Shown piece after piece: positions 1 to 64,000 of a stretch of 64,000 bases of DNA. Both the position numbers and the translations under genes were made by a program. Where the stretch lies: positions 55,967-119,966 of the forward strand of contig USDL01000001.1 of the NCBI GenBank assembly GCA_900553365.1, written 5' to 3'. The notes beneath the pieces are model-generated. The model was not told the origin of the DNA. It made no database searches and saw nothing but the letters and a program-made list of their open reading frames with translations. Numbering within the stretch: position 1 is the stretch's first letter; every line of letters starts with the position of its first letter. Origin of the DNA: an uncultured Clostridium sp. Its GTDB lineage: Bacteria; Bacillota; Clostridia; TANB77; CAG-508.

Positions 1-361
1 AGGTGCAACAAACAGCATGATTTGGAATTGGAATGTGGTATCTTTTCAATTCTGGATAAATTACTTTGTTAGCGTCATATTTGGCATTGTGAAAAATCCA
101 AACACTATCTGTCATATAATCTTTTATTTCTTCCCAAACTTCGTCAAATGTAGGGCAATTTTTAATAGTATCATAAGTGATACCATTAACTTTAGATGCT
201 CCACTTTCAATCTAGGTCTACGGATTTACTAATATATATTTATCAACAATTTTTTTGCCGTTTTCATACACTAAAATTGCAATACTAACAATTCTATTTT
301 CTTTAAATCCAGTAGTTTCAGTATCTCCTATAACGAGCTTATTATAATTAGGGAGAGCCAT
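1..361 (-). CDS. DEDD 3'-5' exonuclease (DnaQ/epsilon-like); C-terminus lies beyond the window start
   Basis: ATG at 359-361 lies two nt after the TAA of the preceding gene. Hand translation MALPNYNKLVIGDTETTGF...SKVNGITYD...WIFHNAKYD carries an Exo I motif (DTETTG) and an HxxxD-like motif. Two in-frame TAG codons (218-220, 212-214) explain why the ORF track missed it. Confidence 0.7.
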
Positions 362-363
362 AA

Positions 364-807
364 TTACTCTCCCTCTACATCTTTATTAGATTTCAGAGCA
401 TTTGCTCTTGCTGTTTCAATAGTATTATTTTCATCTTTAATAGCCAGAATTTTCTTCATCTTATTAAAAGCTTCTAAAATATATTTCAAAGAACCAGATA
501 AACACACTCCTAAAGTTGCCACTGTTGAAATAACAGTACTATATTCAGCAGGAATAGGAAGATTGTTTTTGTTTGCCCAAGGAATAATTAAAGAGGTAGA
601 AAGTACAAGTAACATTGTACCACCCGCAAAAGCTAAAATTTTATAAAGGCTATTTATTAATCTTTGTTTTTCAAAAGTCTCTCCTGCAATTTTAATATTA
701 TAATACAAAGAGAAACTAACATTAGAAAGATATGCCATGCCAAAAATAGAAAATCCCACCAAAGCTGCCAAAAGATTTTCTAAGGCTAATTTCCAAAAAT
801 CCTACAT
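364..807 (-). CDS. Small multi-pass membrane protein, function unknown
   Basis: ORF 364-771 extends in frame through TAG (802-804) to ATG 805-807, which is preceded by AAAGGAGAAAG. TAG is codon 2. There are several hydrophobic segments and the stop is TAA. Confidence 0.6.
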
Positions 808-825
808 AACTTTCTCCTTTAAATT

Positions 826-1299
826 TTAATTACCAGAACTTCCAAATCCGCCAGCGCCGCGCGCAGTATCGGGAAGTTCTTCTACTTGTTCAAAAGTAGT
901 GGGAAGCACAGGAAGAATCATAGCTTGAGCAATCCTATCTCCGTGTCTAATAATTTGTGTTTCAGTACTATCATTATGAAGAGCAACAATCCATTCACCA
1001 CGATAATCTGCATCAATTACTCCAACGCAATTTGCAGGACGCAAACCTTGCTTTGTAGCCAACCCACTACGAGCAAAGACAGCACCCCAATATCCAACAG
1101 GAATTGCCGTTGCAATACCAGTCTTTACCTTTACCGTTTCGTGAGGACGAATCTTGATTCCTGCAACATCTTTCTGAACATCCCAACTATAATAACTATC
1201 ATCAGGACAATCAGCATAAAGGTCGAAGCAAGCATCAGTCTCGTGCGCCTTAGTAGGCATTTTAGCTGTCTTAGACAGCAATTTAATCTTTACATCCAT
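826..1299 (-). CDS. dut: dUTP pyrophosphatase (trimeric dUTPase)
   Basis: ORF 826-1308 contains ARSGLATKQGL, GVIDADYRGEW and a C-terminal RGAGGFGSSG, which are dUTPase motifs. ATG 1297-1299 is a likelier start than the TTG used by the ORF track. No TAG codons. Confidence 0.85.
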   Translation of the reverse strand: MDVKIKLLSKTAKMPTKAHETDACFDLYADCPDDSYYSWDVQKDVAGIKIRPHETVKVKTGIATAIPVGYWGAVFARSGLATKQGLRPANCVGVIDADYRGEWIVALHNDSTETQIIRHGDRIAQAMILPVLPTTFEQVEELPDTARGAGGFGSSGN

Positions 1300-1356
1300 A
1301 TTTGTCAATCCTTTTTTGTTTAATTTTAATTTGTTTCTGTTTTATTGTATAATATA

Positions 1357-1387
1357 TAAAAATGGTGGAAAGTTACCCTTCCACCAT
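1357..1387 (-). terminator. Rho-independent terminator overlapping the RNA ligase stop codon
   Basis: A 9 bp stem ATGGTGGAA/TTCCACCAT (1362-1370 / 1379-1387) is followed on the minus-strand RNA by UUUUUAUAUAUU. Confidence 0.6.
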
Positions 1388-2766: not shown

Positions 2767-3732
2767 TTATTTTTCAGAAGTCCCACTTGCAATTTTATCG
2801 CATTCGTTAAACAAAAAAAGCTTATCAAGGTTTTCTTTTCCCATAATCTTTTCCCATTTAGATTTAGACTTTTCGGTTTCAAGAAAGAATGGAAGCATAT
2901 GAAAATTAACATAAAACAGACATTTTAAAATATCGTCCATATTAGTAAATCCAATACAATTAAGATTTGCTAAAAGGTCATACGTTCCTACATTATGATG
3001 ACTATAATATCTATAATCTCCAGAACCATCTTCCTTGGGCTGTCCAGTAGTTAACTTGCCTAAGTCATGAATTTGTGCAGCTCTATAAAGAATCTTATCA
3101 TCAGTTCTTTTAGCAACTTCTTCGGCACAAATTCTACAATGTTCATCTAAAGTGTACTTATGATGACAAGTTTTCTGGTCAAAGCCCTTCATCAAACTCA
3201 TAATATAATCATCATCAGTAGTCCAATTAGACTGAGGGACAATTACTTCAAACTGATTAAAATTCCAACCAATTAAATTAATTGTATCAAAACCTTCTTC
3301 ATAAAAAGGAATTTCAAACTTGCCAATCTGTCTGTCAATAACTTCTTCGGGAACTGTACGAGTTCTCGCTTTATTCTGTCTTTTACAAACAGCAACGGGA
3401 GTAGTCATAACATAAGCTACTTTAGTAACATTCTCCTTATTGCGAACAATATCCAACAAGCTCTTACGAGATTTAACATTAATATTAGTTGCATCAACAA
3501 TAACATTCATTTTATCAATGCAATTGTTAATACGGCGACGAACTTCCTTAAAAACCTCGTCATTATGAGTCTGGTCGTTTACATCTCCAAAAACAGTTTC
3601 ACGAATTTCATCCGATGAAACAATCATTGTAGGCTGACCCATTTTAGTCAACATATTTTTGAGATTTTGAGCAAGAGTGGATTTACCACTTGCAACAACT
3701 CCAATCATCATCATAAAATTCGTATGTTCCAT
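2767..3732 (-). CDS. Polynucleotide 5'-kinase fused to a C-terminal HD-domain phosphohydrolase (RNA end-healing enzyme)
   Basis: The 321 aa ORF has a P-loop GVVASGKST, a kinase-type SSDEIRE, and then H..HD-type motifs (CHHKYTLDEH, IHDLGK, SHHNVG). RBS AAGGAGGA precedes the ATG. No TAG codons. Confidence 0.75.
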   Translation of the reverse strand: MEHTNFMMMIGVVASGKSTLAQNLKNMLTKMGQPTMIVSSDEIRETVFGDVNDQTHNDEVFKEVRRRINNCIDKMNVIVDATNINVKSRKSLLDIVRNKENVTKVAYVMTTPVAVCKRQNKARTRTVPEEVIDRQIGKFEIPFYEEGFDTINLIGWNFNQFEVIVPQSNWTTDDDYIMSLMKGFDQKTCHHKYTLDEHCRICAEEVAKRTDDKILYRAAQIHDLGKLTTGQPKEDGSGDYRYYSHHNVGTYDLLANLNCIGFTNMDDILKCLFYVNFHMLPFFLETEKSKSKWEKIMGKENLDKLFLFNECDKIASGTSEK

Positions 3733-4256: not shown

Positions 4257-6719
4257 TTATTCCTCTTGTACTTCATCTTTTTCTTTCCAATCTTTTAGTT
4301 GCCTAATTAAAGTTCTACGCTCTTCATCTTCTTTTCTATGAAGCACATTATACTATTCTCTAAGCTATCTGTATTCCTACTTCAAAAATTCAGGTAGGAA
4401 TGTTCTTTTTGTTGAAACAAAATTTGTATCAATAGAACGTCGTAAGGCTTTAGTTTGAGCTACAAGTACACACAATTTCTTAGCTCTGGTTAATAAAGTG
4501 TAAATCTGTTGCTGACAAAGCATCATTGGAGGAGTACTATAATCTATTACTCCAATAATTACAGGGCAACCAGAACCTTGATATTTATGAGTAGTACAAG
4601 CATATCCTAGAATTAAATGTTCCTTAACTTCTTTGTGTTTTAAAATAATAGGTGCATCTCCTAAATCGAAATCAACGATGGCATTTTCATAATCAATACT
4701 TGTAACTACACCAGTCCACCCATTATACATAGCTGTTTGTGCTCCACTTGTATCAAAAACTTTATAATTGTTTTTAATACACATTACTTTATCACCTTCT
4801 TGAATCCAAAAAGACCTGTCATTTCCAGAAGCATCTTTCATCTTTTGAACGTAAATTCTTGGACGAGATTCATTCAAATCAACAGGATTAATTAATTTTT
4901 GAATATCAAGATTTAAATTGTGAACACAAGCATCTCCACGTTCTTTCACAGGAGAAATAATTTGAATTTTTTCAATGTCACCATTTACAAGAGGGCTATT
5001 AAAATATTTTTCAAAATAAGCAATGGTATCTTTTCTATCATCATCTTTTTCATTTCTAATATCAAGTACCATATCTTTCAGTTCTCCGCGAATTTCAACA
5101 CCTTCATAATCAGTATCTTGATATAATTGAATACCATTTCTTACATTATAAGCGGTAGTTAAAATACCAGAAGCCTTTGCTTGTCTATGTACTTCTTTAA
5201 GTTCAACAGTAGGAATTTCTTTGCTATTAATCATATCCGCAGCTAAATTAAGAGAACCAATAGATTCAAGCTGTCCCATATCACCAAGCATTAAAAGTTT
5301 ACTGCCTGTGGGAATTGCTCTAATTAAATCGAGAAAAATTTCTCCACCCACCATACTAACTTCATCTAAAATAATGATATCATAAGGTAATGGATTATCT
5401 TCTCCATAAGAAAAACCACAACCACCAGTATATCCAAGAAGTCGGTGAATAGTAAAACCTTCTTTGCCGGTAACTTCTTGTAATCTTGCCGCCGCTTTAC
5501 CACTTAAAGCACATTGAGCAAAAGTATAGTCATCAAGTACAGATAAAATACCTGTAACTAACGAACTTTTACCAGAACCAGCTAAACCAGAAATTACGCA
5601 AACTTGTTTTTCAATTCCCAGCTTAATTCCGTCTATTTGCTCTTGAGTAAACTGAAAACCTTGTTTCTCTTCTGCTCTTTTTATTTTCTCTTCAAAATCA
5701 TTAGCAACAAAATAATTATTACCTTGAAGTAATCTTTTAAGATGATAAGCAATATCTTTTTCAAGATTCCAAAAGCTCATTAAATAAACTCTTCGACCTG
5801 ATTTAGTATCGCCCTCTTCAACACGAATTAACTCCTCATCTTGAAGTTCTTTAATAGCTTTACCAACATTGTTTACAAGATTACCATCTTCATCTTCTAC
5901 TATTAAACTTTGTTTTCCGCCAAGGTCTTCATATAACGAGCCCATTAATTCACCAGCGGACACCCAAGAATGGCCTTCTTCTCCTTGGGCATCAAGATAC
6001 CATAAGATATAAGATTTAATTCTCTTTGTGTCATAAGTTTTATAACCTGACCTTAAAGCCACTTTATCCGCAGTAAAAAATCCTACTCCTTTAATATCTT
6101 TTACTAACTGATAAGGATTGTTTTTTACAATATCAATTACCTTTTGTGGAGCTTTATATTTTTCAATTAGTTTAGAAATAAAGTTTGGAGAAAAACCAAC
6201 CTTATCAAGCTCTAAATATACAGTAGACATATCTTTACTGGCTTCGAAACGCTCAATAATACAATTAGAAATATAATCTCCAATACCTTTAGCTTTCTTT
6301 AAAGTTTCTATATCATGGTCTGCAATAGCTTGTAATGGGTCATCGCATACAGCAAACAACTCATCCATTTGACCTTCTGATAAAAAAGTTCTTAAAAAAG
6401 CTCTTTGATTCTTCTGATTAGAAAAATCAATATCTTTATTATAATAAACTAATTGATACTGAACACCATATTTAGGATGTTCAACTTCTTTACCTAACAA
6501 TACATAGGCAGAATTGGGGTCAATTCCATCAGTATATTCCCCTGTAAAAGTAACTTCACCATAAACACTCATGATAGGATTTCCTTGTTCTACTTCAAGA
6601 ATATTCCAAGAAACTATTCCCCAATTTTTACCGTCTGACCCAATTCCAGCACTCGGATAGAGGGTCTTGGAATGAGACGCTTTTATCTTTATGAATTTTT
6701 CTTCGGTATCAACACTCAT
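4257..6719 (-). CDS. RecD-like SF1 DNA helicase (AAA_30/UvrD_C type)
   Basis: Walker A GLAGSGKSS, Walker B IIILDEVSM, and the motifs CTTHKYQGSG and YTLLTRAKK. The ORF-track end at 4377 is a TAG. Reading continues through three TAG codons (4377, 4365, 4353) to TAA at 4257-4259. ATG 6717-6719 overlaps the TGA of the DnaE gene. Confidence 0.8.
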
Positions 6720-8280
6720 CGTCAACCCTCTCTACATCTATTCTGTCAGAAATCATTTCAAGGTCTCCATTATCATCAATACCTTTAATTAACTGAACAG
6801 AATGTTTATATAAACTATCTTTGTACTGTCTTGGAATAAAGTTTTCTCCTCTTCTAAAACCAGTAACAAGAAGTTTAGTTCCACGCTGGAACCAAGATTT
6901 CTCAAGAACAGTTTTTGTTCCATCTTCGTTTATTTGAGAAATCTGCCTATTATAAAAATTAAATTGACCTTTATAAAATTTTATATCACAAACTCCATCA
7001 GGAGTCAATAATGTAACTGTATTTCTATTAGTATCTTTATCAAGAACAGTACCACAAATTCTTTTAAGAACAAAGCGAGCTTTTTCTTGGTCATGCCAAT
7101 AATATTTATAAGCCACTTCTGGTTCTTCTGGTTGTTCTTCAAAAGGTACTATACTATATTTTTCTTTGTTTACATGAGCAAGTTCGTGTTCATGATAATA
7201 CATACAAAGAGAATCCATTTCCCACTTAGAAAGACTTCCAGAAGCTTTTTCATCCCATACAGCTTTAAATTTTGCTTCATTTACAGCCACAAGCATTTTA
7301 GGGTCGCTTAAAATATCGTCTTTAAAATCTGCCATGAGCTTGTTAAAAACTCGGTCTAAACTACCTCTTTTAACAACTCTTTGTCCCTCGTCACTCCAGT
7401 CGTAATCTTTTTTATCAATCATGTCATTAAGAAAATATTTTTCAAAGAATGGCCGTGCAAATTTATTTTCAAGGATATAATAAGCTGTACTTGCACTTTT
7501 ACCTATTTGTTTATAAAAGAATTTTTTCTGGAAAACATAATTTCTAAATCTATATAATCTTAATTCAAACTTTTTTTGATTTTCAGTTAATAAATCAAGA
7601 TTTGCCAAATCTTCAATGTTAGAAATATTGAGCGACTTAACAGGACTTGAGATAAATCTAATAAAGTCTTCCATAATTGCTCTTCTATCTTTTTTCTCAA
7701 GATTATCAAAACACCGAGCTTTGATAAGAGAAATCATAGCTGTATCACCAAATTTATTTTCTTTAGATTCAGACTTGTATTTCTGCATCTTCTCGTAAAA
7801 ATCCCACATCGAAGAATAAGTTTGATTATTAATAATAGCTTTTGCAATAGTAGTTCCAATACCTTGAATTGGTTTTAAACCATAAACAATTTCGTTTTTT
7901 TCAACGTCAGGATGGAAACCAAATCTAACACGGTTTACATCAGGTAATGCTACAGTAACACCTTCTTTTTTGATATTACCAATGGCTTTACTAATTTTAC
8001 CATAATTGGTATTTCCATCTTCACCGCCAGAATCGGAAATTAAATTGGCGGTGTTCCAATAAATAACAGGATAATGATAAGCAAGATTAGCTTCTTGCAA
8101 ACCAACGATTGAATAAGCTAATGTATGAGCACTATTAAACCCGTAACCGCGATTCATACTAATGAGAACATCCCATACATAATGACACAGTTTAGAAGAA
8201 AGATGTTTTTCTTCTATATTTTTATAAAATTCTTGTTGTAATTCAACATAAGCTTTAGGATTCTTTTTCAGTTTTGTTAT
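6709..8280 (-). CDS. dnaE: DNA polymerase III alpha (DnaE-type), predicted exon 2
   Basis: Contains GYGFNSAHTLAYSIVGLQEANLAYHYP, the counterpart of the DnaE GYGFNKSH motif. The ORF begins mid-domain, and the sequence is contiguous with ...ADKLRKSIA at the end of the upstream ORF. Stop is TGA. No TAG codons. Confidence 0.75.
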   Translation of the reverse strand: MTKLKKNPKAYVELQQEFYKNIEEKHLSSKLCHYVWDVLISMNRGYGFNSAHTLAYSIVGLQEANLAYHYPVIYWNTANLISDSGGEDGNTNYGKISKAIGNIKKEGVTVALPDVNRVRFGFHPDVEKNEIVYGLKPIQGIGTTIAKAIINNQTYSSMWDFYEKMQKYKSESKENKFGDTAMISLIKARCFDNLEKKDRRAIMEDFIRFISSPVKSLNISNIEDLANLDLLTENQKKFELRLYRFRNYVFQKKFFYKQIGKSASTAYYILENKFARPFFEKYFLNDMIDKKDYDWSDEGQRVVKRGSLDRVFNKLMADFKDDILSDPKMLVAVNEAKFKAVWDEKASGSLSKWEMDSLCMYYHEHELAHVNKEKYSIVPFEEQPEEPEVAYKYYWHDQEKARFVLKRICGTVLDKDTNRNTVTLLTPDGVCDIKFYKGQFNFYNRQISQINEDGTKTVLEKSWFQRGTKLLVTGFRRGENFIPRQYKDSLYKHSVQLIKGIDDNGDLEMISDRIDVERVDDEC

Positions 8281-8513
8281 CACAGAGCTTTTTATCTCTG
8301 CTTCTTACAATTTCTTGTAAGCTCGGCGTACATTATTAACTCTAACGAGTTAAAGGACACTCTTGGATGGATTATATTTATTCACCATCTACGCTCTACA
8401 ATACTTAATAACCTTTCGCAATTTATTAAGTTATCTCGATGTTTCCATTTTACAGGGTTCACCGATTTTGCCCTTTTCATTTTACTTGTCACCAAATAAA
8501 CGGCCCAAAATTA
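8281..8513 (-). ncRNA. Putative ORF-less self-splicing (group I-like) intron interrupting dnaE
   Basis: A 233 nt non-coding, structure-rich insert sits inside a conserved DnaE helix. It starts with an in-frame TAA and ends in G. The exon end UUGCU can pair with the internal GGCAA (U.G at the junction). GAAA-capped hairpins are present (CTTACAA-GAAA-TTGTAAG; ACTTAATAA..TTATTAAGT), as is TAACTC-GTTA-GAGTTA flanked by GCGTA/TACGC. Confidence 0.5.
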
Positions 8514-10925
8514 AGCAATACTTTTCCTAAGCTTATCAGCCCACAGCAAATCAAAACCACCAATCTCAGGGTCTTGAACTGCCATCATAAAGTCTTCTTG
8601 GTTAGGTAATAAACCATAGCTCTTCTTAGCGTATTTACAAATAACTTCTTGCTCATGTTTAGTCAAACCATAATCATCCATCTCTTTATACCAAAGAGTG
8701 ATATCTTTCTTATAACGACCAAAACGCTCAAGAGGTGTTTCTGCCCGTGGAGAAGGAGCCATAAGTCTCATTACTGAATTTAAAGCAGATAAATCTACCA
8801 AACTTTCAGGTTTACCTATTGCAACAGCTTGATATCCAGTTTGTTTTTCCATCTGGAAAAATGACATAACTTTATGTTCATTAAGCATTTTCCAAATTTC
8901 TGGATTATCCCTTTCTATTTTGTAAACGCCTAAATATTTTTCGTAAGTAGACTTTAAATCACCTTGCCATTCAAGCCTACCGTCTTCCATAAGAAGATTC
9001 ATACAAACATGTTCTTTTTGAAGAGCATCAATAGAAAGCAAATCCCATTTAATAAGAGATACTTTTTCATCAGCGTGTAGGTCAAACTGAGTGATAATAT
9101 CTCCACTCGTTGTCTTCATTAAAGCAGCATGGTCTACAACGTCTGTTGCTGAAAGAACTACCCCACCAGCATGAGAACCAACTCCACTTACTAACCCTTC
9201 AATATTTTGAGCAACTTCCCAAACATCAGGGTACTCATTAGTCATTAAGTTAACAAATTCTTTGTCAGGACGTAAATTGTTTTCTTCATCACCATAAAAA
9301 CATTGTTTTAAAGTAAACTGAATACCACGTTCTTGACCAATATGTGAACTTAACATCTGTCCAATTTCAGGTGGATAACTTAAACCACGACAAGCAGTTT
9401 GAATTGCAACTTTAGCTTTCATCGTAGAAAGTGTTTGAACCTTCATAACACGACGATTTCCTGCTCTCTGGTCATCGCCACAATACTTGCGTTGAAGATA
9501 GTGAATAACATCATCACGATAAGCATTCTCAAAATCCACGTCAATATCTAATGGGCTAACACGTTTAGGATTAAGAAAGCGCCAGTGATAACAAGGAACA
9601 TCTTCTCTCAGAGGATTAACCTGAGTAATTCCTAAAATATACAAAAGAATAAATCCTAAACCTGAACCACGAGAAGGACCAACTAAAGAACCACAAGCCC
9701 AACACGCATTTACCAAGTCACGAGTCTGTAACAAATAAGCTGACCAATGAGCATTATTAGCTTCTGAACTTGCTTTAATAGACTCAAGACATGTTTGAAT
9801 TGCATCATAAGTTTCTTTATTTGCTAATTCATCAGAATCTTTTTCAAGGCGCTTAACAATTTCTCTAACAAGGTGTCTATCAGCATTGTAATCTGAATTA
9901 AAAAACCACTCTAACATAGGAATATCTTTAAAATATTTTTTAGCTAAACCCAAATCAGGTTCAGTTAAATCATCTGGCTCATAAGGAATTTCCAAATTAG
10001 CGAATAAAGTATATTCTTGAACCATGTTATAAATCAACATGGTATTATCTAAGCCTTTTTGTACAACTTCTGGAGTCAAAAATTCATCCATGTAAGAATG
10101 AATTTCTTCTTCGGACATCATATAAGTTGTAGCATAAAACTCTCCAACCTCACGTTCTTTACCACTATCTTCATTAGATTTAAGAAAAGCTTCATGTACT
10201 TTTCTATCTTCTTTTTTGGGATAATGACTATCGGTAGTGATAATATATGGAATATCAAGTTCAGCAGACAGTCCCACTAAAGCCTGATTTACAATAATTT
10301 GTTCTTCACTCTTTGATGGCTGTAATTCCAAAAAGAAATTACCATGCCCAAAACATTTATCGAGTCTTTTTAACCATTTCTTGACGCCCTTATAATCAGG
10401 TTGTAAAGGATTTTGTTTATAAGAATCTAAAATTAATTTTGGACAACGACCACCAAGGCAAGCAGTTGAACCAATAATATGACCTCTATCAGATTCAACT
10501 ACTTCAAACAAATCTTCATAATAAGTTGGAGTACAAATATTAACATAAGTAAAAGAATTATCAATCCATGCTCTTGTACTTAATTCTCTTATTTGCTTAT
10601 GTCCAATGGCATCTTTAGCCAACAAAATGAAGTGATAAAAAATATATTCTTTGTCTTCTTCAATACTTTTTCGATTGCAAAGATAAATTTCATTACCTAA
10701 AATAAGTTTATAATCTTTCCACTTATCAGGATTTTTCTTTCGCAAATCGTCTATTTGAGTTAATGCTTCAACGTGTGCGGCAATACAGTCATGGTCTGTA
10801 ATAGCAACACCTTTATGACCAAGCTCCTAAGTATATGTGAGAAGACCCTTGACAGTGTTAGTGCTGTCAAGGAAACCTCTCGTATTGGAGCCTATGTCTG
10901 TGTGATTATGTACACCTACAAACAC
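8514..10925 (-). CDS. dnaE: DNA polymerase III alpha (DnaE-type), predicted exon 1 (PHP and palm domains)
   Basis: ORF 8511-10745 extends upstream through TAG (10827-10829, codon 33) to GTG 10923-10925, which is preceded by AAGGAGAG. The N-terminus VFVGVHNHTDIGS...AITDHD is a PHP motif, and PSRGSGLGFILLYILGITQVNPL is palm-like. Confidence 0.8.
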
Positions 10926-10985: not shown

Positions 10986-13025
10986 TTAAAAATCCAAATC
11001 TTCTAAATCTTTATCTAACATTACTCTTTTCTTCTTGGGCTTTTCAATTTCATCCCAATCAAAATCTGTAGTAGATTTTGCATTTAAGGAAGTCGTTTTA
11101 GAATTAAGAATAGCGTCAGATTTAGTCTTACTTTTTAAATCAGAAGTCTCATTTGTTTTATCCTCCATAACATCATAATATAAAATTTTAACTTCTGGAT
11201 AAATCTTGTCTTCCCAAGACTCTAACTGGAACTGGCAAATTAAATTCATTACCAAATTCTTTTTATTAGCGCCAAAGGTATATCTATCCTTAAGAGTCAT
11301 CATATCAAATTCTGTAGCAGGACAATACTTTTTAATATAAGTAATACCGTTATGCTGGAATCTAATAAAACTCTTAGTTTCGCCATACCCATTAATTTGA
11401 CTAGCATTTATATGAAGATTTGTAATTGCAAAAGTAGGAGTAGGGACAGTATTACCCCACACTTCATAATTTTCAGCTACTTCTTTTACAAATCTTACTT
11501 GCATTTCATTAGCAGGAATTTCCCAATCAACTGGATAAATAGTTTTAAGTTGGTCAAGAGGAAGCATTTCGTTACACTTTTTAATTACCTCATCAACATT
11601 TTTCTTTTTAAGAAATACACCAGCAGCGTTTTCATGTCCAGCACAACTTATAAGTCCAGTTTGCTCTAAAAACTCCTTCAAGTTTTTAATGTTTCCTTTA
11701 TCATATCCGCGACAGGAGCCACCGAATTCTGAGATACTCCTTTCCTTAAGAAGCACCACTGGACGCAAATACTTAGAAGCAATCTTGTTTGCTACTAATC
11801 CCGTAACAGATTTTTTATCAACTATGTCGGTACAATCGACAAATAAAATAGTATTTTTATCTAGTCCTTGTTTGTCAATTTTATCAACAATTTGCTCCAT
11901 AAATTTACGAACGGCTGTATCTTGACGAGACTTTACATTATTAGCTACTCTCGCCATCTCCCATTGAAGTGTATGTTCTTCTGGAAGAGGTTTCGGGTCG
12001 GTAGCTCTTTTTCTTCTTGGTTGATAAATAACAGTTTCTTGTTCTCCAACCATAGCTCTGAATAAATCTCTTTGCTCTTTTTCTGTACCATAACGTACTA
12101 CACCATTAATTCTTGGAGCAAGTACCCAGCCGACATTTGTAATAGTTCTACCAAAGTGAATTTCATCAGCCATTCTTTCTTGAAGTTCATTAAGAAAATC
12201 ATTCTTTTGATTTTCAACTTTCAAACCTTCAAGTACATACCATCTTGTTTCTAAGTCTCTCAAATCCATACTATCTGCAATAATACCAAGAGAAACTAAA
12301 TCAAGATATTCATCAAGCCAACTATCACTACAGTGATACTTTTCACAATAAGCTTCACCAAATTTGCGAACTACACCCACACCAGACAAAGTAGGATTGG
12401 GATAGTGACCATCAGTATCATTTACAGCTACACAATAGTTAATGTAACTATCTTCTTTAATTCTGTCAGACTCTTTTTCTTTAATTTCATCCGCTTCATT
12501 TTTTAAAATCCATTTACCTGTGTTAGTATCTAAATATTCAATTTCAACTAAATGGTGGTCTAACACAATTATAGGGCAATTGTAATTTTTAGCAATTTGA
12601 ATCGCATCTTTACAAATCATTGAAGCATCTGGAATAATAATTAAACCGATTTCATCTTTTGAATATTCACTTAACATCTTGTAAGTTAATCCATGCTCTT
12701 TATTAAAGCTAAAAATATATTCTACTTTAGCTTCAGGATTAAAATGCTCAATAATTTTACTCATTAAAGTAGCAGATGTATATCCATCACAATCGCAATC
12801 GACCTTAATTACAATTTTCTTGTCTGTATCAATATTATCATGAAAAACCTAAACAGCCTCATCCATATTCTTCATCTAAAATGGGTCATTAATAACCTTA
12901 TTTTTTACAGGATGAAGAAAACTTTTTACATCCTAAATATCATAGCTTTTTAAAATAGTTTCAAGAAAATCATATTCATCATCAAAGTTATTCTAAAACT
13001 TTGTCTCCCATAGTAATTTTTCCAT
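10986..13025 (-). CDS. recJ: RecJ-like DHH-family single-strand DNA exonuclease
   Basis: ORF 10986-12764 has a DHH motif (VLDHH). The in-frame upstream extension carries motif I (KVDCDCDGYTS) and four TAG codons (12993, 12933, 12876, 12849; codons 11, 31, 50, 59). ATG 13023-13025 overlaps the primase TAA (TAATG). Confidence 0.75.
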
Positions 13026-38895: not shown

Positions 38896-38909
38896 TTTCA
38901 ATCTCCTCC

Positions 38910-41769: not shown

Positions 41770-41851
41770 ACAGTAAACTGCCTACTTTATTTTTTCAATT
41801 CCTTCTTTTAAGGATAAAATTTCCTTAGCTTTATTTTCATTATATTCACTT

Positions 41852-45547: not shown

Positions 45548-45958
45548 TTCTTTATTGCATAAAACGCTAAAGCTAAACTCTAACGTCTTAAGGAACTCCT
45601 TGTACACATGGTACATGAGATATGTGGCTCAAACCCGCTTTACGAACCCGTAAGTTTGGTCTTCTTTAAGTCCTCATCCTGTGCTCATGGACACCACATT
45701 AAAAAGCTGCAAGACTATGCCTTGTAGCTGGCCTAAATATACAACATGGTATATAAGGTGATAAGGTTTATGCCGACACCTTAAAACGCCTTTCTCTTCC
45801 GTTTGAAACCACGCATGAAAGTATGTTGGTCGGACAGTTTTAATTGCTACCCTGTGGAAACCTGACAACCCTAATAAGCCTCCATTGCATCACTGGATGG
45901 TAGCCCAATATACAACTTCTCTGGCAACCATGACCTCTTGTGCCAATAGGTTTATTTA
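45548..45958. ncRNA. Unassigned structured non-coding island (~410 nt)
   Basis: Visibly more GC-rich than its surroundings. There is no credible ORF in any frame, even with TAG read as sense. It has many local hairpins (GCTACAAG-gcatagt-CTTGCAGC, TTACG-ggtt-CGTAA, TGTAC-catgt-GTACA, GCTACC...GGTAGC), a duplicated GTTGTATATT..GGC motif, and hairpins bracketing it on both sides. Confidence 0.4.
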
Positions 45959-50394: not shown

Positions 50395-50414
50395 AGCAAC
50401 TCCTTTCCTTTTAA

Positions 50415-51422
50415 TTATGTAACAGAAGCAAACTTCTTTTGGAAATCATTCATCGTCATAATTTCCTTAGACATATCCTTCTTGTTATCAGTAAATATCC
50501 AATGGTGAATGTCTCCATCCTTAAACTAAACCATCCGAGACATAGCACCCTAAATCTAAGCATAATAATACCCCTTAGCATCAATGGTTTTTAGCATTAA
50601 AGAAAGTTTTCTCAAACTTACTTGTTCTTTTAACATCTCCATAGTGTATGGAGAACTAATGGATATACAGACAAGCTATTTTTCCAAGCTTGGAGATGTG
50701 TAATTCTTGTTCTGCATCCTCGCCTTTAATTCCATTTCTTCTCTTAAATTGGGGTCGATATACCTATCTCCATCGTAATCCAAAATATTTTGGTGTGTAA
50801 TAATAGCTATAAATTCATCAAGTTCTTTTGGTTCTAAAACTATATCGTATATATATAATTTTTTCATGCCATTAGCACCCGTTTGAATTCCATAGATATC
50901 TCTCATTTTGCTCTTACATTCTGGACATATAACATAATTATTAATAAACTCAAGAGCTTTAACTTTCTTTTCAGTTTCGCTTAAATTATCAGGTAATGTT
51001 TCTTGGAATTTAGCATATTCTTTGATAACTTCAAACTAAGTTCGTTTGAATCCACAATGAGGACAAAACAAACCATTTTTTTCATGGAGCACAAGTTCAA
51101 ACATATTAATTACCTAAGAAGTAACCATAGGTCCATATTCTTGATTTTCCATGTTCTATATTAAATATGCCATATAAGACATACCAATACCTTCGGGATT
51201 AGCCACTTTTTTAGTGGTTTCTATTCCATTTTCATCTACAATTTTTATTTCTTTAATATTTTTATCTTGAGTAAAACAAGATAAATTAGCATAAAAATTA
51301 TAGTAATCTTTCGTTAAAACTGGATAAATTAACAAGCCTTTAAATGGCACTGGTAAATCCAGACCGAAATAGGCTTGTTCGTACATTTCCATTTTAGCTT
51401 GTAACTCTTTAGATATTGCCAA
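50415..51422 (-). CDS. Hypothetical protein with a zinc ribbon (CPHCG...CPEC), 335 aa
   Basis: ORFs 51156-51422 and 50676-50906 plus the gaps join in frame through seven TAG codons. A TTG start follows directly after the upstream TAA. Stop is TAA at 50415-50417. Confidence 0.5.
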
Positions 51423-55341: not shown

Positions 55342-55953
55342 TTAGTTAAGAGTAATAGCACCAATCTTGCTACCTACAATAGCGTCCATACCCATACGCA
55401 TGTCAACGGTGAAACCGTAAGTATGGTCAGCAGCAAACAAGGGGTCCTTCTCAACAGAAACGGTATTACCCTCCATGACAACCTTGATAGGCTTATTCAT
55501 GCCAAGAGGAAGCATATAAATAATATCGTCGGGAAGAACGACTTCAGGCTCACCATTGATGGTGTTAGGAACAAGAGCATTACCCAGTTCAATCATAGGA
55601 ACATTCTTGTAATCAGGCAGGAAGCCATCTCTAACAATAGCGCTATCCTCACCATAACGGAAACCCTTTGCACTGTCAGGAAGGACAGAAGCGAGAGCAA
55701 TAGAAGTACCAAGAGCATAAACATCAGCACCGCCATTAGCAAGTTTTACCAAACGTGCAACTTTGAGCCAGTTTTCATCAGTAAGACCGTTAGCCATATA
55801 GCCAGCGATACCATCCTGATTGTTAGTAGCAACGTCAGTGTTATTGGTAATAATAGAAGCCATTACCTTAGCAAGACGAGCCTGAATATAAGCGGCAAAA
55901 GAAGCACCAATCTTCTGGAGAAGCTTACCCCAATCTTGGCGGCCCGATGCCAC
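55342..55953 (-). CDS. Major capsid protein, exon 2 (5' boundary approximate)
   Basis: It has the same GC-ending codon style as exon 1. The ORF lacks its own RBS or ATG. It lies directly after the intron-encoded endonuclease. Stop is TAA at 55342. Confidence 0.6.
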   Translation of the reverse strand: MASGRQDWGKLLQKIGASFAAYIQARLAKVMASIITNNTDVATNNQDGIAGYMANGLTDENWLKVARLVKLANGGADVYALGTSIALASVLPDSAKGFRYGEDSAIVRDGFLPDYKNVPMIELGNALVPNTINGEPEVVLPDDIIYMLPLGMNKPIKVVMEGNTVSVEKDPLFAADHTYGFTVDMRMGMDAIVGSKIGAITLN

Positions 55954-57406
55954 GTGGTCAGTTATATTAAGAGTTATTTAGTGTTTTTAGCTTTTTGCTA
56001 TTCATAATCTTTTAAAATTATTTCAGCATAATAATTATTATCTTTTAATAGCCAATTTATCTTGTCAATTATTTCTTGTTTTTCTGGAATAGAATGGTCT
56101 CCTTTTATTCTTAAGACTTTGTAACCCATTTTTTGAACTACTCTATCTCTTTTTATATCTTTCTACTGGTCTTGATGCCAATACCAACCATCATATTCCA
56201 AATCTATTTTAATATCTCCAATAAAAATAGCTACATCTAAATTGAGTTGACTTAAAGGGTAGTTCAACTCTACTTTATATTCATCTAAAAGCATTTCATA
56301 AATTTTTAATTGTTGTGAAGAACATGGAATTAATTCTTTTTTATTAGCTAATGCTTCTTGCATTCTTTTTCGCACTTCTGGATTTTGTACGGGATAATCA
56401 CAACCGTATTTTTCCCTGCAAGTGTTGATAGCTTTAGCCCTTACTTCTTTATTCGAAAAAGGATTTACATCTCCATATTTTTCTAAACAAGTTTTAACAG
56501 CTTTTTCTTTTGCTTCTTTTGTTAAAATTGGATATTCAACTCCATATTTTTTCAAACAAGTCTGTTTTGCTTTTTCTTGACCTTCCTTAATCTACCGAGA
56601 ATTATCCACCCCATATTTTTCATTTAAAGTCTTTTTAGATTTATCCTTAATTTCTTTACTTTTAGCAGGATTATCTACTCCATATTTTTCTAAATTTGTT
56701 TTTATAGACTTATTATTTCTTTGAGCTATTAGCTCTTTATTCTTTCCCCAACAATCTCTACAACAATATTTACCATCATGCTTTTCTATTCTTTTTAAAT
56801 ATTTTTTGTATTGAACCGTTATTTCTTTTCCACAAAAATCACAAACAGCCACAACTTCTCTATGGCTTCCTTCTGGTAATTCTTCTGGTTTAACATGAAT
56901 AGTCTTCCCTTTAAAAAGACTATAACCTTTTTCATTGAAATATTTCTAAGCGGTTTGTGTCCAAGGAATTTCAATCAATTGATTTTCTTTTAACATACAA
57001 ACCTCCTTTTTATTTTATTTAAACACTAAATTTTTCGAATCGTCAATTCGCTCTAACCCTTTCGGATTCTTGTATTTTCACACAAGCTTAGACTATATCT
57101 TCATCCCTATAGGATGTCCACCATTTCGGAATAATTTATTGACTATATTCCTACTCCTCTTACGAGGATAGTCGTTGAACCTTCTTCTTTTCGAAGCTTG
57201 GCTGCTGATTACCAATTTTTAAGATACTTAGGGTTTAACCTTATATCATACAATCAATTTTTTCTGCTTTCGCAACTATCACGATTAAATCTATTTCAAT
57301 TTTGCGTTGTAGTTTGATTGTCTTTACGGTATTCCAGCAATTAAATGGAAATATTTTTACGCATATTACTATACGCCCTAGCTATTTATAACGTGCTTAT
57401 ATTTAA
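55954..57406 (-). mobile_element. Group I intron (IA-like) in the major capsid gene, carrying a homing endonuclease ORF
   Basis: On the minus strand the conserved core reads GGTTCAACGACTATCC (R element, 57181-57166) and GAAGATATAGTC (S element, 57102-57091). GNRA/GAAA-capped hairpins include TCCTC-GTAA-GAGGA and AATCC-GAAA-GGGTT. The capsid codon style stops abruptly after ...GTTGACTGG. Exact splice sites are not resolved (roughly +/-20 nt). Confidence 0.8.
55974..56996 (-). CDS. Intron-encoded homing endonuclease (repeated KYG-x-xNP modules plus a C-terminal Vsr/PD-(D/E)xK-like nuclease)
   Basis: ATG 56994-56996 follows AAAGGAGG. Four tandem ..EKYGVDNP.. type repeats are followed by DLEYDGWYWH..KD.KRD...GYKVLRI. 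Four in-frame TAG codons. Stop is TAA at 55974-55976. Confidence 0.7.
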
Positions 57407-57901
57407 CCAGTCAACATAGAGAGAAATCTGCTCTCTCTTAGCAGAAATAGTATACTCAGTGTTAGAAGCAGTCTGAACACCACCACGAGCAATGCCTTCA
57501 GCAAGGCTATTCACAATGAAGAGCTCATTGCTATCGACTTCATACTTAGCAACATCACCGAAACCAACCTGAGTGACATCATAAAGCTGTTCATAACCAG
57601 ACGCAGCAACAGTAGGAACAACAGGAGTGATAGCACCAGCAAGAATGGTATCAAAAGTCTCAAGGAAGTTACTCTTCTTGTAGACCATAGGATTCTTAAT
57701 CATATCGAGACCGCTCCACTTCATGCCAGCGTTCTCAACACAATACTTCATAAACTCTTGGTTAAAGGTCTTATTAGCTTCAATATACTCAGGGGTGTTG
57801 TTCTTACCCTCAATGGACTTCTGAGCCAAAGAATAGCAAGTTTCAACGAGACCATCAGCGACATCTTCGTTGAATTTGTTATAACTAAAAATTTGTTTCA
57901 T
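57407..57901 (-). CDS. Major capsid protein, exon 1 (3' boundary approximate)
   Basis: ATG 57899-57901 follows AAGGAGGA. It lies after the protease/scaffold and decoration-like genes. Highly-expressed-type codon usage (AAG, CTT/CTC, ATT/ATC) ends near 57407. No TAG codons. Confidence 0.6.
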
Positions 57902-58561: not shown

Positions 58562-60475
58562 TTAAATCTTATTAAGATTTTTCATTGCATTTTTAAGGTT
58601 ATTTGCGCTGTCGTTCACTTCAGTAACAACAGGTTTATCCTTAACGATATCAGCAGAGAACTCTTTCTCCTTAGCTTTTCTACTAAGTTTCTTCTGAGCA
58701 TAAAGAGCATCTGCAATTTTATGGTCAACAGCCTCATTAAGTTCCTCATCGGAAGCATAAGTACTGTTATCACAATTTTCTTTCATAAATGCCTTAATAT
58801 TAGTAGCATTTTCCTCAGTCAAATCTTCTTCAGAATCAACCAAAGAACAAGCCAAAGCATAAAGTTCGGCATTTTTCTTTGCGTTAAACTGAGCATTAAG
58901 AGCATTATACTTTTCAGTCAGTTCAGCGAAAGAGGTATTAAGAGTATTGAATCTCTCATAAAGTTCATCAGCAGTAAGTTGTTCATCACCGACAGCATAG
59001 TGGGTATCCTGAATAACATTACTTTCACCAGAAGGTTGGCCGACTAAAATACTGCCATCATCATGTTCTTTGAGGATATCAGTATCAACTTTAGGAGAAC
59101 CAAGCTCTTCACCTTCAATCTGTCCATAGTCAGCATGAGATTCATCGACAGTTACATCAGTAGCGGCAAACTGAGCGGGGTCTTCGCAATTTTCGATTTT
59201 CTTTTCACCATCGTTATCCTCAGCCTCGGTTTCCTTTTTGCCATCATCATCGTCGTTATCATCATTATCATCATCATGGTCGTGGTCATCATCATTTTTG
59301 TCATCTTCAGACTCATTCTCTTTATGACCGTCATCCTTATTACCATCGTCATCTTCATGCGCACAAGTGCAAGGGTTGTTACCGCAGACTTCGCACTTGC
59401 CGTCTTCAGATTCACATTCCTTGGATTCAGTCTCTTTACCACTCTCATCTTCAGGATTTTCATCCTTAGAGAGTACAATCTTTTCTTTAGCGTCCATATC
59501 AACATTAGCGACATTTTCTTCGTTGATGCTATAAGTAGCTTTAAAATTTTCATCATCAAGGCTAAAGCAAACAACATTGTCGTTAATTTCCGTGACACTG
59601 TAATGAGAAGCATTCTCATCAAGACCGCTATTCAGAAAAGATTCGAGAAGTTGTCTTTTCTCTTCATAGGTCATTGTTTTTGGTTCCTCCCCTCTTTGTT
59701 CATTATCCATCGTGATTTCGTCCACTTTTTCATTAACAACTCCGTTATCAGGAATAATGGAATCGAAATCCTCATTTTTATTATCTGTATCAGAGCCAGA
59801 ATTTTTATCTTTATTGTTATTATCTTCCAGCTCTTTATAAGCGAAAGATAAGCATTTTTCCTGTTTCTGATAAACAGCGTCATTAATTTTATCAAGAATG
59901 GTTAAATGTGCATTAGGGATAGCTTCAGTAACAGCAGAACCAAGAATAGTAAATCCATCAAAAATGAATCTATCTATTACTTCGACTTTATTTTCATCTA
60001 TATGACTTTCAAGGACTTCTATTTCTATAGAAATTTTCTTTTTAGTATCCTTAAGCAATCTTTTAACTTGTTTATAAGCATATTTAGCCCAAAGAACGCA
60101 AGTAAAATGTACCCAAGTTTGACCGTCATGTTCGACAATTTCAACCAAATCTTCGCCACGAATTACGCCAAGTGGGACTTCACATTTACCATTAGTAAAG
60201 TCAAAGTAATCTTGTTGTAACTCATTATCCCATCTATATTCCATTTCATGAGCTTTAAAGTCATCATGAGTAGTATCAAAAGCACCAAGAGCGGGTTTAT
60301 TATAAAAGGTAGGTTTAGCGTCTTGCATAGCAGACACAGGGAAATAGCTATTATTTCTATTAGGGTAGACATCAGAAATCGCGTAAACGTCGATAGCAAT
60401 AAAGTCATTTTTTAACACATTCTTAATTTTCAAACTTTGCGGAGAAAGTTCAAATTTCAGAACTTTTTTATCCAA
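58562..60475 (-). CDS. Prohead protease / scaffold fusion (putative) with an extreme acidic low-complexity linker
   Basis: The 637 aa ORF starts at TTG after GAAAGGAGGAAG. The N-terminal ~200 aa is globular, followed by a D/E/N/H-rich tract and then a coiled-coil C-terminus. It lies immediately upstream of the head genes. No TAG codons. Confidence 0.45.
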   Translation of the reverse strand: MDKKVLKFELSPQSLKIKNVLKNDFIAIDVYAISDVYPNRNNSYFPVSAMQDAKPTFYNKPALGAFDTTHDDFKAHEMEYRWDNELQQDYFDFTNGKCEVPLGVIRGEDLVEIVEHDGQTWVHFTCVLWAKYAYKQVKRLLKDTKKKISIEIEVLESHIDENKVEVIDRFIFDGFTILGSAVTEAIPNAHLTILDKINDAVYQKQEKCLSFAYKELEDNNNKDKNSGSDTDNKNEDFDSIIPDNGVVNEKVDEITMDNEQRGEEPKTMTYEEKRQLLESFLNSGLDENASHYSVTEINDNVVCFSLDDENFKATYSINEENVANVDMDAKEKIVLSKDENPEDESGKETESKECESEDGKCEVCGNNPCTCAHEDDDGNKDDGHKENESEDDKNDDDHDHDDDNDDNDDDDGKKETEAEDNDGEKKIENCEDPAQFAATDVTVDESHADYGQIEGEELGSPKVDTDILKEHDDGSILVGQPSGESNVIQDTHYAVGDEQLTADELYERFNTLNTSFAELTEKYNALNAQFNAKKNAELYALACSLVDSEEDLTEENATNIKAFMKENCDNSTYASDEELNEAVDHKIADALYAQKKLSRKAKEKEFSADIVKDKPVVTEVNDSANNLKNAMKNLNKI

Positions 60476-61371: not shown

Positions 61372-61395
61372 ATTATTGTCCTCTCACTTTCCTTT

Positions 61396-61656
61396 TTATA
61401 GTTTCTCCATAATTCCTTTGACATCTTTTTTAATATCCTGAATATCAGATTTATTTTCCTCTATTTTCTGGAAAACAATTCCCATATTCTTTTCCAACTC
61501 GTAGGTACGAGTAATTAGATTATTGTGAGCATCTACTTTTCGTTGCAACTGCTCGATTTTATAATTGGTTAATTTATTGGTAGTAATGATACCACCAATA
61601 GTACCAACACAAGTTCCGATAAAGGAAATTATAGCAATTATAATTGTAGGGTCCAA
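61396..61656 (-). CDS. Small membrane protein with a coiled coil (holin/XhlA-like candidate)
   Basis: An N-terminal TM segment (IIIAIISFIGTCVGTIGGIITT) is followed by a heptad-rich helix. TTG start lies 8 nt after AAAGGAGG. Confidence 0.4.
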   Translation of the reverse strand: MDPTIIIAIISFIGTCVGTIGGIITTNKLTNYKIEQLQRKVDAHNNLITRTYELEKNMGIVFQKIEENKSDIQDIKKDVKGIMEKL

Positions 61657-61698
61657 TTTAATCGACCTCCTTTACGAAAGACTGAAAAAAGGGAACAA

Positions 61699-61929
61699 TC
61701 AAGCTTTCTCAATTATTAATTCTCCCTTTTCGTCTGTATTAAAGACGAAACATTTTTGACATTGCGAACAAATGTAAAACTATTTATCAGGAGAAACCAT
61801 TAATTTTTTCGTGCTTTTTTGCAACGTGGTATTAGAGTCTAAAGGATTATGATTACAACAAGGTTCAGAATTTGTATGGTCTTTTTTAATACACCACTTT
61901 TTTTCTTTAAATGTTTTAATCAAATTCAC
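61699..61929 (-). CDS. Small Cys-rich protein (76 aa)
   Basis: GTG start just after the portal TGA. One in-frame TAG. CxxC-type pairs are present (CCNH..., CSQCQKC). Stop is TGA. The start is tentative. Confidence 0.35.
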
Positions 61930-61933
61930 ACTT

Positions 61934-63829
61934 TCAATCCTTTACTTTCTTTGGAATCATGTGAGTAAAAGTACTCATATCATTAATACGAGACTCATAC
62001 ATTTCTTCCAAGCATTCGTTACAAATTACATCTTCATCTTCATTCAGTTCTTTTCCGCAAATTTGGCACTTTTTGATATTATATGAAAACTCCTTAATGT
62101 CTGAAACATTAGTTCCAGCATTGGAAGAGTTACCAGTATTATCGTTGGTAATCTCATCGTCATTCAACTTTGGTCTACCAACAGGGTTAGCGATTAAATT
62201 TTCTTGGTCTAATACTTTTTCAACTTTAATATCTAAAGCTTTAAGGTAAGCTTTAGCTTGTTGATAATCATCAACAGTCATACCATTAGCCGACAGAAGT
62301 TTAGGAATAAAGCCTTCCAAGCCAGACACAACTTGTTCTCTAAGGATTTTAATATCCTCGCGAATATTAAAGATATCACCCCAAAGAGAAATTTTCCATT
62401 GGAATTTCAAATCAAAATTCTTATTAATCATTTCATTTAAGAAACTTTCGTACTGTCTGGTAAGGTAATCAATTCTAGCAGCCTAAATATATTGAGCAGC
62501 CTTAACAGAAGCGATAGAAGGTTTATCAGTAATACTCATAAGAGCAGAATTACCAGAAGTAGCGATTAAATCTCTAGTTCTATCGTAAATGATATCCATT
62601 GCTTCGGGCTGATTTTCTAAGGTGTGTAAATCAAATTCAGTAAACGGTGCAAAAAAGGGGAGTATATTACCTGAAATATTCTCCGCAAAGAAATCCTGAT
62701 AACCAAGAATTGTATCAGGAGTAATAACAGTAGAATCGGACCGGGCCTTGGCATCCTTCGTAATAGGAACCTCAGCAGTTAAAACACTGTTAACACCCTT
62801 ACTTAATAAATTTGCTTGCAACCATTTATAGTCATCCAAGTCTGTCAAATCATCAAACAGACCAATAGTATCAGGAAATGCATTAGGATGAGAGCCATCA
62901 AAATAGAATGTATAGCACAAATCTTGAGGCAATCTTACCCAATACATATAATTTTCTCCATTACTTTCCAAGATGTGACCATCGGGAAGTTTAGCTTTAG
63001 GAGAAATTCTCTTTTTCTTAGTTTTCTAATCTATAACGACAACTCCTGTTTCCAGCATTTGATTCCAGACATCCTGAATAAATTGAGGATATTGACTAAC
63101 ATCATAAGCTGGTTGAAGGAAAATTGCCATATTAAAAGCAATAGTAAACTACTGTTTACTACCAAAACCAATCAATTTAACCATATCGGTATTAAGTTTC
63201 TACATGACAAAGAAATTAACATCATTCTTATCATAGCTTGTACGAGGTAAATAAGAAGATTTACCTTCCAAACTCACCTGAGTAGTAATAGTTTTTAAAG
63301 TTAAATTTGGTTTAAAAGCTTTTAAAATCTTATCGACTTTTTGACTTTCTTTTTTAAAAGCTTCGGTAGACATATCTTTCGAGTCAACATACTCTGGGAT
63401 ATAATAATAATTAAATAAGGGAGTATCTCTATTAAGTTTTACTAAAATATTGTAAACATAATTAGTATAATACAGCCACATACTGATTCTCTAAAAAGTC
63501 ATTTCAGAGTTTTCTGGATTGTTTAAAGCATTTTGAAGGTCTTCTGATTGAACTTTTTGAGCCTTAGCGTTAACTTGTTTAATACGTTGATTCTGTAAAA
63601 ACGGATTATTTAATTGACTCCAAGACATAGCCCAAGCGCCAGCCAAGTTGTCAAAACCAGTAGAAGCGTATTTACCAAAAATAGTAGCCCATCTTTGCTG
63701 AATAGCCTTCAATGAAACATCTTCTTCAGGTTTATCCTAAGTCATAGTAATCATTTTAGCTTCTTCATTTACAACAGCTTTAGGCGATTCAACCTTTTTA
63801 GGTCTTCCTCTTTTTTTGGGACTATCCAA
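61934..63829 (-). CDS. Portal protein (putative) with a C-terminal zinc ribbon
   Basis: Four ORF-track fragments are in the same frame and the gaps were checked. They join through six TAG codons. TTG 63827-63829 lies 8 nt after GGGAGG. The product is 631 aa and sits upstream of the protease and capsid genes. The C-terminus carries CQICGK..CNEC. Confidence 0.55.
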
Positions 63830-64000
63830 TATTATTTCCTCCCTTCTTATTAATATCTGTAGTCTTAACAGACTTTTTAGCTTTTTCTTGTTCAGCTAAA
63901 ATATGTTCGAAATTATCGAGAGCTTTCATAGTATCTCTCAATTTCTGTTGCTTTTCTATTTCATATCTTTGTTTTTCTATTGCAACTAAATTGTCTCTAC
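63798..64000 (-). CDS. 3' end of an upstream coiled-coil ORF (partial)
   Basis: Open frame ...RDNLVAIEKQRYEIEKQQKLRDTMKALDNFEHILAEQEKAKK... reads through one TAG to TAA 63798-63800 and overlaps the portal start. Confidence 0.4.

Follow-up and report, generated by a model that had tools for sequence, protein, structure and literature searches.

TAG is read as a sense codon, very probably for glutamine, in a roughly 212-kb phage of the human gut

Introduction

Does the amber triplet TAG end genes in a 64,000-nucleotide stretch of DNA deposited under an uncultured Clostridium sp. (GenBank assembly GCA_900553365.1, contig USDL01000001.1, positions 55,967 to 119,966 of the forward strand), or is it translated there, and if so into which amino acid? 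The question was raised by an earlier note on this stretch (hereafter the window, that is, all 64,000 nucleotides), which claimed from the letters that TAG is a sense codon throughout, that only TAA and TGA terminate genes and that the inserted residue is probably glutamine (Gln). We find that TAG never terminates a gene in the window. Furthermore, the genes of the phage to which the window belongs are very probably written in genetic code 15, with TAG specifying glutamine and TAA and TGA as the only terminators. Amber-to-glutamine recoding has already been described and experimentally validated in gut phages, and some of the public gene calls made on this phage already read through TAG.

The window makes up about 30% of a double-stranded DNA phage of the human gut that is roughly 212 kilobases (kb) long and has SPbeta-like structural gene families. 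It is 100% identical to Joint Genome Institute (JGI) contig 3300029230 Ga0168685_100029 (211,648 bp, human gut), and contigs that encode the window's proteins measure 202–224 kb and come from human gut metagenomes in many samples. The window has a G+C content of 33% and a strong skew of C over G on the plus strand. Forty-nine gene models, all on the minus strand like every window feature named below, comprise 20,027 codons and cover 94% of the bases; their starts were picked beside AAGGAGG-type sites. The comparison took in 116 related loci overall, among them 28 overlapping loci from other samples that are 92–99% identical to the window. Distant relatives, one at 60% protein identity, were added using tblastn with a read-out of the aligned codons.

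Results

TAG does not terminate genes in the window

Across the 49 models, the reading frames contain 125 TAG triplets and not a single TAA or TGA; the genes themselves end in TAA (42) or TGA (7) and never in TAG. When these genes are read in their two non-coding frames, TAG accounts for only 16.5% of stop triplets, so the chance that all 125 in-frame stops would be TAG is about 10^-98. No in-frame TAA or TGA was found in any of the strains compared. TAG shows no excess near the 3' ends of genes, and thus there is no sign that it still ends any gene of the window. Besides these 125, a partial gene at 2–361 has two more TAG; the earlier hand count was roughly 130. Two individual counts in that note agree exactly with ours: 41 TAG in the tape measure gene (25981–38901; 4,306 codons) and 20 in the gene of a tail-associated protein (21790–25809; 1,339 codons), where TAG makes up 40% of the Gln-type codons. 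Delimited by TAA and TGA alone, the corresponding open reading frames (ORFs) span 25981–38919 (4,313 codons, 41 TAG) and 21790–25827 (1,346 codons, 20 TAG).

Coding density was compared between codes 11 and 15, as the earlier note had proposed. Counted over ORFs of at least 100 amino acids (aa), it rises from 0.696 with code 11 to 0.933 with code 15; code 4, a control in which TGA is sense, gives 0.724. The gain from code 11 to code 15 exceeds the threshold of about 10% that published surveys apply to call recoding (PMC13037316).

Could TAG still be a stop, and the long genes be strings of pseudogene fragments or artefacts of assembly or sequencing? The standard-code calls of JGI, which break the genes into many small ORFs, give just such a picture. 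However, a Shine-Dalgarno (SD) motif with an in-frame start no more than 40 codons past the TAG occurs at 4 of the 125 sites, compared to 3.3 ± 1.8 at random codons, whereas 33 of the 49 real gene starts have an SD motif. Starts after TAG are thus at random level, and the fragments have none of their own. At 123 of the 125 positions, at least one other locus also has TAG, the loci being independent assemblies from many samples, and the phage recurs intact at 202–224 kb in many metagenomes. Profile matches also run across TAG codons: the portal protein (61934–63829; six TAG) gives a single match to PHROG family phrog_2739 over residues 74–573 (profile 26–498 of 501), and the Holliday-junction-resolvase-like gene (42536–43069; 177 codons, four TAG) a single match to phrog_843 over residues 1–174. 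Together with the exclusive use of TAG among in-frame stops, these observations make fragmented or artefactual genes extremely improbable, and we return to TAG as a sense codon.

Public gene calls provide a natural experiment, because JGI applied the standard code and the ENA/Logan calls read through TAG. Read-through calls regain domains that are lost in code-11 calls. The tape measure, split by JGI into dozens of pieces, appears in read-through calls as products of 4,261–4,327 aa (one of them 4,310 aa) that match PF10145 (PhageMin_Tail). All four TAG codons of the RecJ-like exonuclease gene (10986–13025) precede the DCDCDG motif and fall within codons 1–59; the code-11 call is 592 aa long and has no DHH match, and the read-through call of 679 aa has both DHH and RecJ_OB. 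Similarly, the DnaB-like helicase gene (14234–16048; two TAG) yields one 497-aa product with a DnaB_C match instead of JGI pieces of 338 and 187 aa. The partial gene at 2–361, which runs off the window end and encodes an RNase T/DnaQ-like exonuclease, is called as 180 aa with PF00929 rather than as pieces of 47 and 85 aa. Reading through TAG does, as had been claimed, restore N-termini that would otherwise be missing.

Alignments with relatives agree. The TAG at 20801–20803, which stands 16 codons ahead of the TAA in gene 20753–21772, has CAG as its counterpart in one relative and CAA in a second, and the protein aligns to its last residue in 21 loci; the protein therefore does not end at this TAG, just as the note had argued. 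Relatives of the tail-associated protein align over its full length at 60–98% amino acid identity.

Relatives carry glutamine codons at TAG positions

Strain-level exchanges of TAG with another codon amount to 45 site-level events, of which 17 involve CAG, 14 CAA, four GAG and three GAA. More specifically, TAG sites of the window are CAG (9), CAA (7), GAG (3) or GAA, AAA, AAG, ATG and TGC (one each) in other strains, and TAG sites of other strains are CAG (8), CAA (7), GAA (2) or GAG, AAA, TCG and CGA (one each) in the window. Among all 116 loci, at least one relative has a Gln codon at 54 of the 125 TAG sites; the corresponding figures are 18 for glutamate (Glu) and 13 for lysine (Lys). Under substitution profiles trained on the same alignments, the log-likelihood is -403.5 for glutamine and -531.7 for the runner-up, glutamate, a gap of 128. 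Because TAG exchanges mainly with CAA and CAG and glutamine fits best, we take TAG to encode glutamine, and on these comparisons the earlier guess was probably right.

That TAG is sense but stands for another residue, such as glutamate, lysine or pyrrolysine, is very unlikely. Glutamate and lysine are the second and third commonest counterparts of TAG, and on general grounds a host without glutaminyl-tRNA synthetase (GlnRS) might load a CUA tRNA with glutamate that then escapes amidation. Yet the non-glutamine counterparts of TAG follow the substitution spectrum of ordinary CAA and CAG sites, where glutamate (86) and lysine (77) occur as well. Moreover, exchange of TAG with CAA requires two substitutions and is nevertheless as frequent as exchange with CAG. 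For pyrrolysine, ARAGORN labels the CUA tRNAs of related phages 'tRNA-Pyl', but this label reflects the anticodon only, and the Pfam context tables contain no pyl genes (pylS, pylBCD). In a solved RecJ structure (8y30), the residues aligned with three TAG positions are Q, E and I, a comparison of low power that is compatible with glutamine but weak.

Related genomes encode a variable and sometimes split tRNA(CUA)

ARAGORN finds no tRNA gene in the 64-kb window, in agreement with the earlier statement that no suppressor tRNA is present. A walk along IMG/VR relatives, starting at window position 1 and going downstream, led to a dispersed array of about 15–25 tRNA genes per related genome, roughly 20–31 kb past that position in the direction of transcription. 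A tRNA(CUA) gene lies directly 3' of tRNA-Arg(UCU), about 31 kb from the window, in all 30 loci that cover the site. It is called intact by ARAGORN in 19 of them; in the other 11, the same exons are split by an insertion of 220–235 nucleotides (nt). The Rfam tRNA model scores 45.5 bits on one copy (related locus L069, 7905–7976). One further 'CUA' call, in L096, was dismissed as a variant tRNA-Arg(UCU).

In phages about 92–98% identical to the window, this one locus holds no fewer than four unrelated forms of the tRNA(CUA) sequence, one of which is 91 nt long and has a long variable arm. Examples are L069 7905–7979, L078 7885–7959, L079 7908–7978 and L085 909–999, and there are others. The presence of multiple forms in closely related phages suggests cassette-like replacement. 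In the forms examined in detail, U1 stands opposite U72, unpaired, and the discriminator is G73; one tRNA-Gln(UUG) variant of the phages likewise has U1 and G73.

Split genes, which ARAGORN misses, occur at L072 7626–7919 and L068 6664–6969 and also in L073, L076, L086, L088, L091, L092 and L096. The break is in the anticodon loop, at U35/A36 in one type and at U33/C34 in the other. When joined, the L072 exons equal the intact tRNA of L071 except for two differences in the D-loop. The L072 insertion aligns along the full length with the Rfam group I intron model; its score of 34.9 bits (E = 2e-7 in a small search) stays under the gathering score of 50. For the L068-type insertion, Rfam gave no match even at relaxed thresholds, and at gathering thresholds there were no intron matches in the tRNA loci. 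We consider it unlikely, but worth stating, that the code switch depends on this hypervariable and sometimes split suppressor gene. If it did, strains with the split gene would need RNA splicing before they had a functional amber suppressor and hence before any TAG-containing gene could be translated, and this requirement would act as a built-in delay or checkpoint. On this reading, the variety of tRNA(CUA) forms could reflect an arms race with host defences that target tRNAs; an RNA ligase of T4 type, a kinase and a Thg1-like enzyme are encoded by the phage as well.

Some other tRNA genes, including tRNA-Gln(UUG), carry anticodon-loop insertions of 50–85 nt, too short for group I introns and in some cases with a T-arm-like hairpin (L068 5671–5827 and 6322–6454; L086 5739–5874; L072 1730–1851); the Rfam tRNA model finds these genes and ARAGORN misses them. 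Directly after tRNA-Thr stands a tRNA with an 8-nt anticodon loop, to which ARAGORN assigns the four-base anticodon 'ggta' (L075 5116–5188, L087 6352–6424, L091 5140–5212, L092 5211–5283 and L096 4297–4369); in L079, the gene in the same place is called tRNA-Pro(ggg). Just ahead of the array, relatives have a Thg1-like ORF (L036 18854–19693). Together with the T4-type RNA ligase gene (RNA_lig_T4_1; 1373–2731) and the adjoining AAA_33/KTI12-type kinase gene (2767–3732) of the window, it is a possible tRNA repair or maturation set.

TAG is unevenly distributed over genes and genome regions

The window corresponds to that part of the genome which holds structural and replication genes. At least one TAG is present in 28 of its 49 genes (57%), the other 21 being TAG-free, and overall TAG makes up 14.6% of Gln-type codons. 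The richest genes are that of the 1,339-aa tail protein, two neighbouring genes at 50415–51422 (seven TAG) and 49372–50394 (six TAG), the resolvase gene, small ORFs and homing endonuclease genes. The gene at 49372–50394 is HTH/LAGLIDADG-like, relatives of the pair at 49372–51422 having faint Pfam matches to HTH_17 (helix-turn-helix, HTH) and LAGLIDADG_3. TAG is absent from the genes of the capsid, the tail tube (YomU_Tube; 48323–49357), the YonD_N protein (58562–60475), the RNA ligase, the kinase and the dUTPase (826–1299), and from the primase-like, exonuclease and beta-CASP genes. Avoidance of TAG by the most abundant virion proteins (capsid, tube and scaffold-like) fits a suppressor that would be weaker than normal Gln tRNAs.

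Within genes, the first tenth holds 26 of the 125 TAG, where about 12.5 are expected; these include all four of RecJ and codon 2 of gene 364–807. This enrichment could be a gating feature, or it could in part be an artefact of start-codon choice. Along the genome, TAG occurs 6.2 times per 1,000 codons in the window and, in related genomes, 6.5–8.3 times in the upstream lysis-side region and 0.3–3.0 times in the 40 kb downstream, which contain nucleotide-metabolism genes and the tRNA array. Around the array itself, L036 has one TAG in 3,114 codons.

The YonB-type major capsid gene is present as two halves (57386–57901 and 55342–55977), split by a 1,449-nt insertion (55957–57405) that is absent in relative L008. 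Within it, the Rfam Intron_gpI model matches 57069–57400 at 63.9 bits (gathering score 50). This group I intron contains a homing-endonuclease-like gene (55974–56996; DUF7487 and DUF559) with four TAG, whereas the capsid exons have none.

Such a distribution invites the view that TAG has two phases: release factor 1 (RF1) of the host would stop translation at TAG early in infection, as a translational gate, and glutamine would be inserted once the phage suppressor has accumulated. 'Sense throughout' would then be true of the genome text and not of every stage of infection. The 21 TAG-free genes, the nearly TAG-free surroundings of the tRNA array, the excess of TAG in the first tenth of genes, and the heavy recoding of intron-borne homing endonuclease genes but not of their host genes all speak for it, and the same model has been proposed for other recoded phages (bioRxiv 10.1101/2021.08.26.457843). 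On the other hand, RecJ, DnaB, DnaE and RecD2, replication genes that are needed early, also have TAG, and the 5' enrichment could stem partly from starts called too far upstream. We regard the chances of a two-phase TAG as evenly balanced; in the genome text, TAG is a sense codon under either view.

Replication genes, recombinase and mobile insertions

The DnaE gene consists of an N-terminal exon (8514–10925) and a TAG-free C-terminal exon (6709–8268). The N-terminal exon has the PHP domain with its HNHTD motif, matches PF02811 (PHP) and PF07733, and contains one TAG at codon 33. The exons are parted by a 245-nt insertion without ORFs (8269–8513), whose boundary was set by comparison with relative L002, where it is absent. 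It gave no match in Rfam; it may be a small intron, its nature being unproven. In other strains, LAGLIDADG-type genes are found at other DnaE positions. The RecD2-like helicase gene (4257–6719; AAA_30, UvrD_C_2 and HHH_RecD2) has three TAG near its C-terminus, in the context EYR-x-LRE-x-YNVL.

A tyrosine recombinase (Phage_integrase) gene at 40401–41393 is placed within the structural module. It contains two TAG, and read-through calls of 326–330 aa match PF00589. Published Garnet and Topaz prophage integrases, in contrast, avoid TAG.

Mobile insertions vary from strain to strain throughout the phage. Two overlapping ORFs in different frames occupy 41371–42388 of the window, an HNH-like ORF at 41852–42388 and another at 41371–41928, where a single NUMOD1-type gene of 338 aa is found in relative L026; the copy in the window may be a frameshifted homing endonuclease gene. 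In L012 (1989–3182) and L014 (2055–2810), an HTH-type ORF resembling a homing endonuclease gene breaks up the tape measure gene. The Rfam 'drum' RNA motif (RF02958) matches 45830–45926 at 43.6 bits (gathering score 43), in the intergenic gap from the beta-CASP gene to the ClpP gene.

Lineage and probable host

Precomputed tables for public gene products list the SPbeta-type Pfam families YonB, YonD_N, YomU_Tube and YorF. They also list PhageMin_Tail, ClpP, tyrosine recombinase, DnaB, RecJ and DnaE as well as a RecD2-like helicase, T4-type RNA ligase and dUTPase. A Pfam search of the structural proteins found little, and GenBank phages (INPHARED) gave no DNA match in a megablast with 20 kb of the window. 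The large terminase gene is absent from the window and from the fetched loci. Judged by the tube protein, the nearest cultured relatives are phages of Enterocloster bolteae (about 36% identity); phages of Thomasclavelia and Lysinibacillus come next. These relatives and the strong SD sites point to a Firmicutes host, probably of the Clostridia type. A 28-mer from the suppressor tRNA had no relative among GTDB representative genomes.

Discussion

Taken together, the composition of in-frame stops, their conservation and their glutamine counterparts argue for code 15, and in every feature tested the phage fits the kind of recoded phage for which this code is known. Several points nevertheless weigh against this reading. 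The suppressor tRNA is only weakly similar to tRNA-Gln, its best scores against the other tRNAs of the phage being 12–24. It was seen in relatives only, the closest of which are about 92–98% identical to the window in overlapping DNA, so that a suppressor in the window's own strain is presumed. A search for the release-factor GGQ motif by regular expression in 2.3 Mb of fetched, redundant DNA found none, with about 100 kb of the genome outside that scan. The tube protein had no relative among GTDB species-representative genomes, and no host was assigned by this route. Lastly, the TAG codons of replication genes fit poorly with a simple split into early standard-code and late recoded genes.

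We propose the following course of events, which agrees with the model published for other recoded phages. After infection, the TAG-poor tRNA array would be expressed under the standard code of the host. A host enzyme would charge the suppressor with glutamine, either GlnRS directly or glutamyl-tRNA synthetase followed by an amidotransferase, and the charged suppressor would out-compete RF1. Genes with TAG could then be completed, among them those for the tail, tape measure, portal, homing endonucleases, RecJ, DnaB, DnaE and RecD2.

For annotation, the consequence is practical: the standard code shatters the genes of an abundant gut phage, and code 15 is required. The amber-recoded lineages gain a Firmicutes-type, SPbeta-related jumbo phage in which recoding reaches replication genes and the most abundant virion proteins avoid TAG. 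The part that most deserves follow-up lies outside the window, at the variable and sometimes split suppressor locus. Surveys find suppressor tRNAs in only 35–60% of recoded phages, and split genes of the kind described here, which standard finders miss, could partly explain this figure.

Amber-to-glutamine recoding is known in crAss-like and Lak phages and in six further clades, including the Jade and Sapphire phages of about 200–210 kb (Yutin et al., PMC7886860; bioRxiv 10.1101/2021.08.26.457843). Code-15 gut phages with suppressor tRNAs were described in the latter study, and the assignment of TAG to glutamine in gut phages has been validated by metaproteomics (Peters et al., PMC9523058). 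According to recent surveys of jumbo phages, code 15, CUA suppressors and tRNAs that contain introns are common (PMC13037316). The phage studied here shares with code-15 gut phages the presence of TAG in part of the genes, its alignment with glutamine, the retention of TAA and TGA as stops, a host presumed to use the standard code and the preferential recoding of homing endonuclease genes. A tRNA(CUA) gene of their own, which is frequent though not universal among such phages, was seen here in the relatives. The phage differs from them in lineage, in its SPbeta-like structural families and strong SD sites, and in having TAG also in core replication genes and the tyrosine recombinase; furthermore, the DNA examined showed no RF2 gene.

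Among named clades, Jade and Sapphire have mean genome sizes of about 200–210 kb and belong to a set for which Firmicutes or Bacteroidetes are the predicted hosts; TAG is recoded in the Sapphire representative, and 26% of Sapphire genes are recoded (Borges et al., bioRxiv 10.1101/2021.08.26.457843). By description, the phage resembles them in its 202–224 kb contigs, its human gut origin and recoded modules spread over the genome, and it may already belong to a named clade, these two among the candidates. In contrast to the Sapphire figure, 57% of the window's genes have TAG, the window being the structural and replication part only. The phAss-1 group (PMC10607447) shares a place in the human gut virome, TAG in structural ORFs and the use of suppressor tRNAs. 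At 136 kb rather than about 212 kb, phAss-1 differs in size, and the likeness to it is one of description only.

With Bacillus phage SPbeta, the phage has in common the YonB (capsid), YonD_N (scaffold-like), YomU_Tube (tube) and YorF families among its products. SPbeta uses the standard code, has a genome of about 134 kb and infects Bacillus. The kinship is remote: the megablast turned up no GenBank phage with similar DNA. For the suppressor, a classical counterpart is the supE tRNA-Gln(CUA) of Escherichia coli, whose 1:72 position is weak or unpaired, whose discriminator is G73 and which inserts glutamine at UAG in competition with RF1. In the forms examined in detail, the tRNA(CUA) of the relatives also has an unpaired 1:72 position and G73. 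Unlike supE, however, it is borne by the phage, exists in at least four unrelated forms at one locus and, in a third of the relatives, is interrupted by an insertion.

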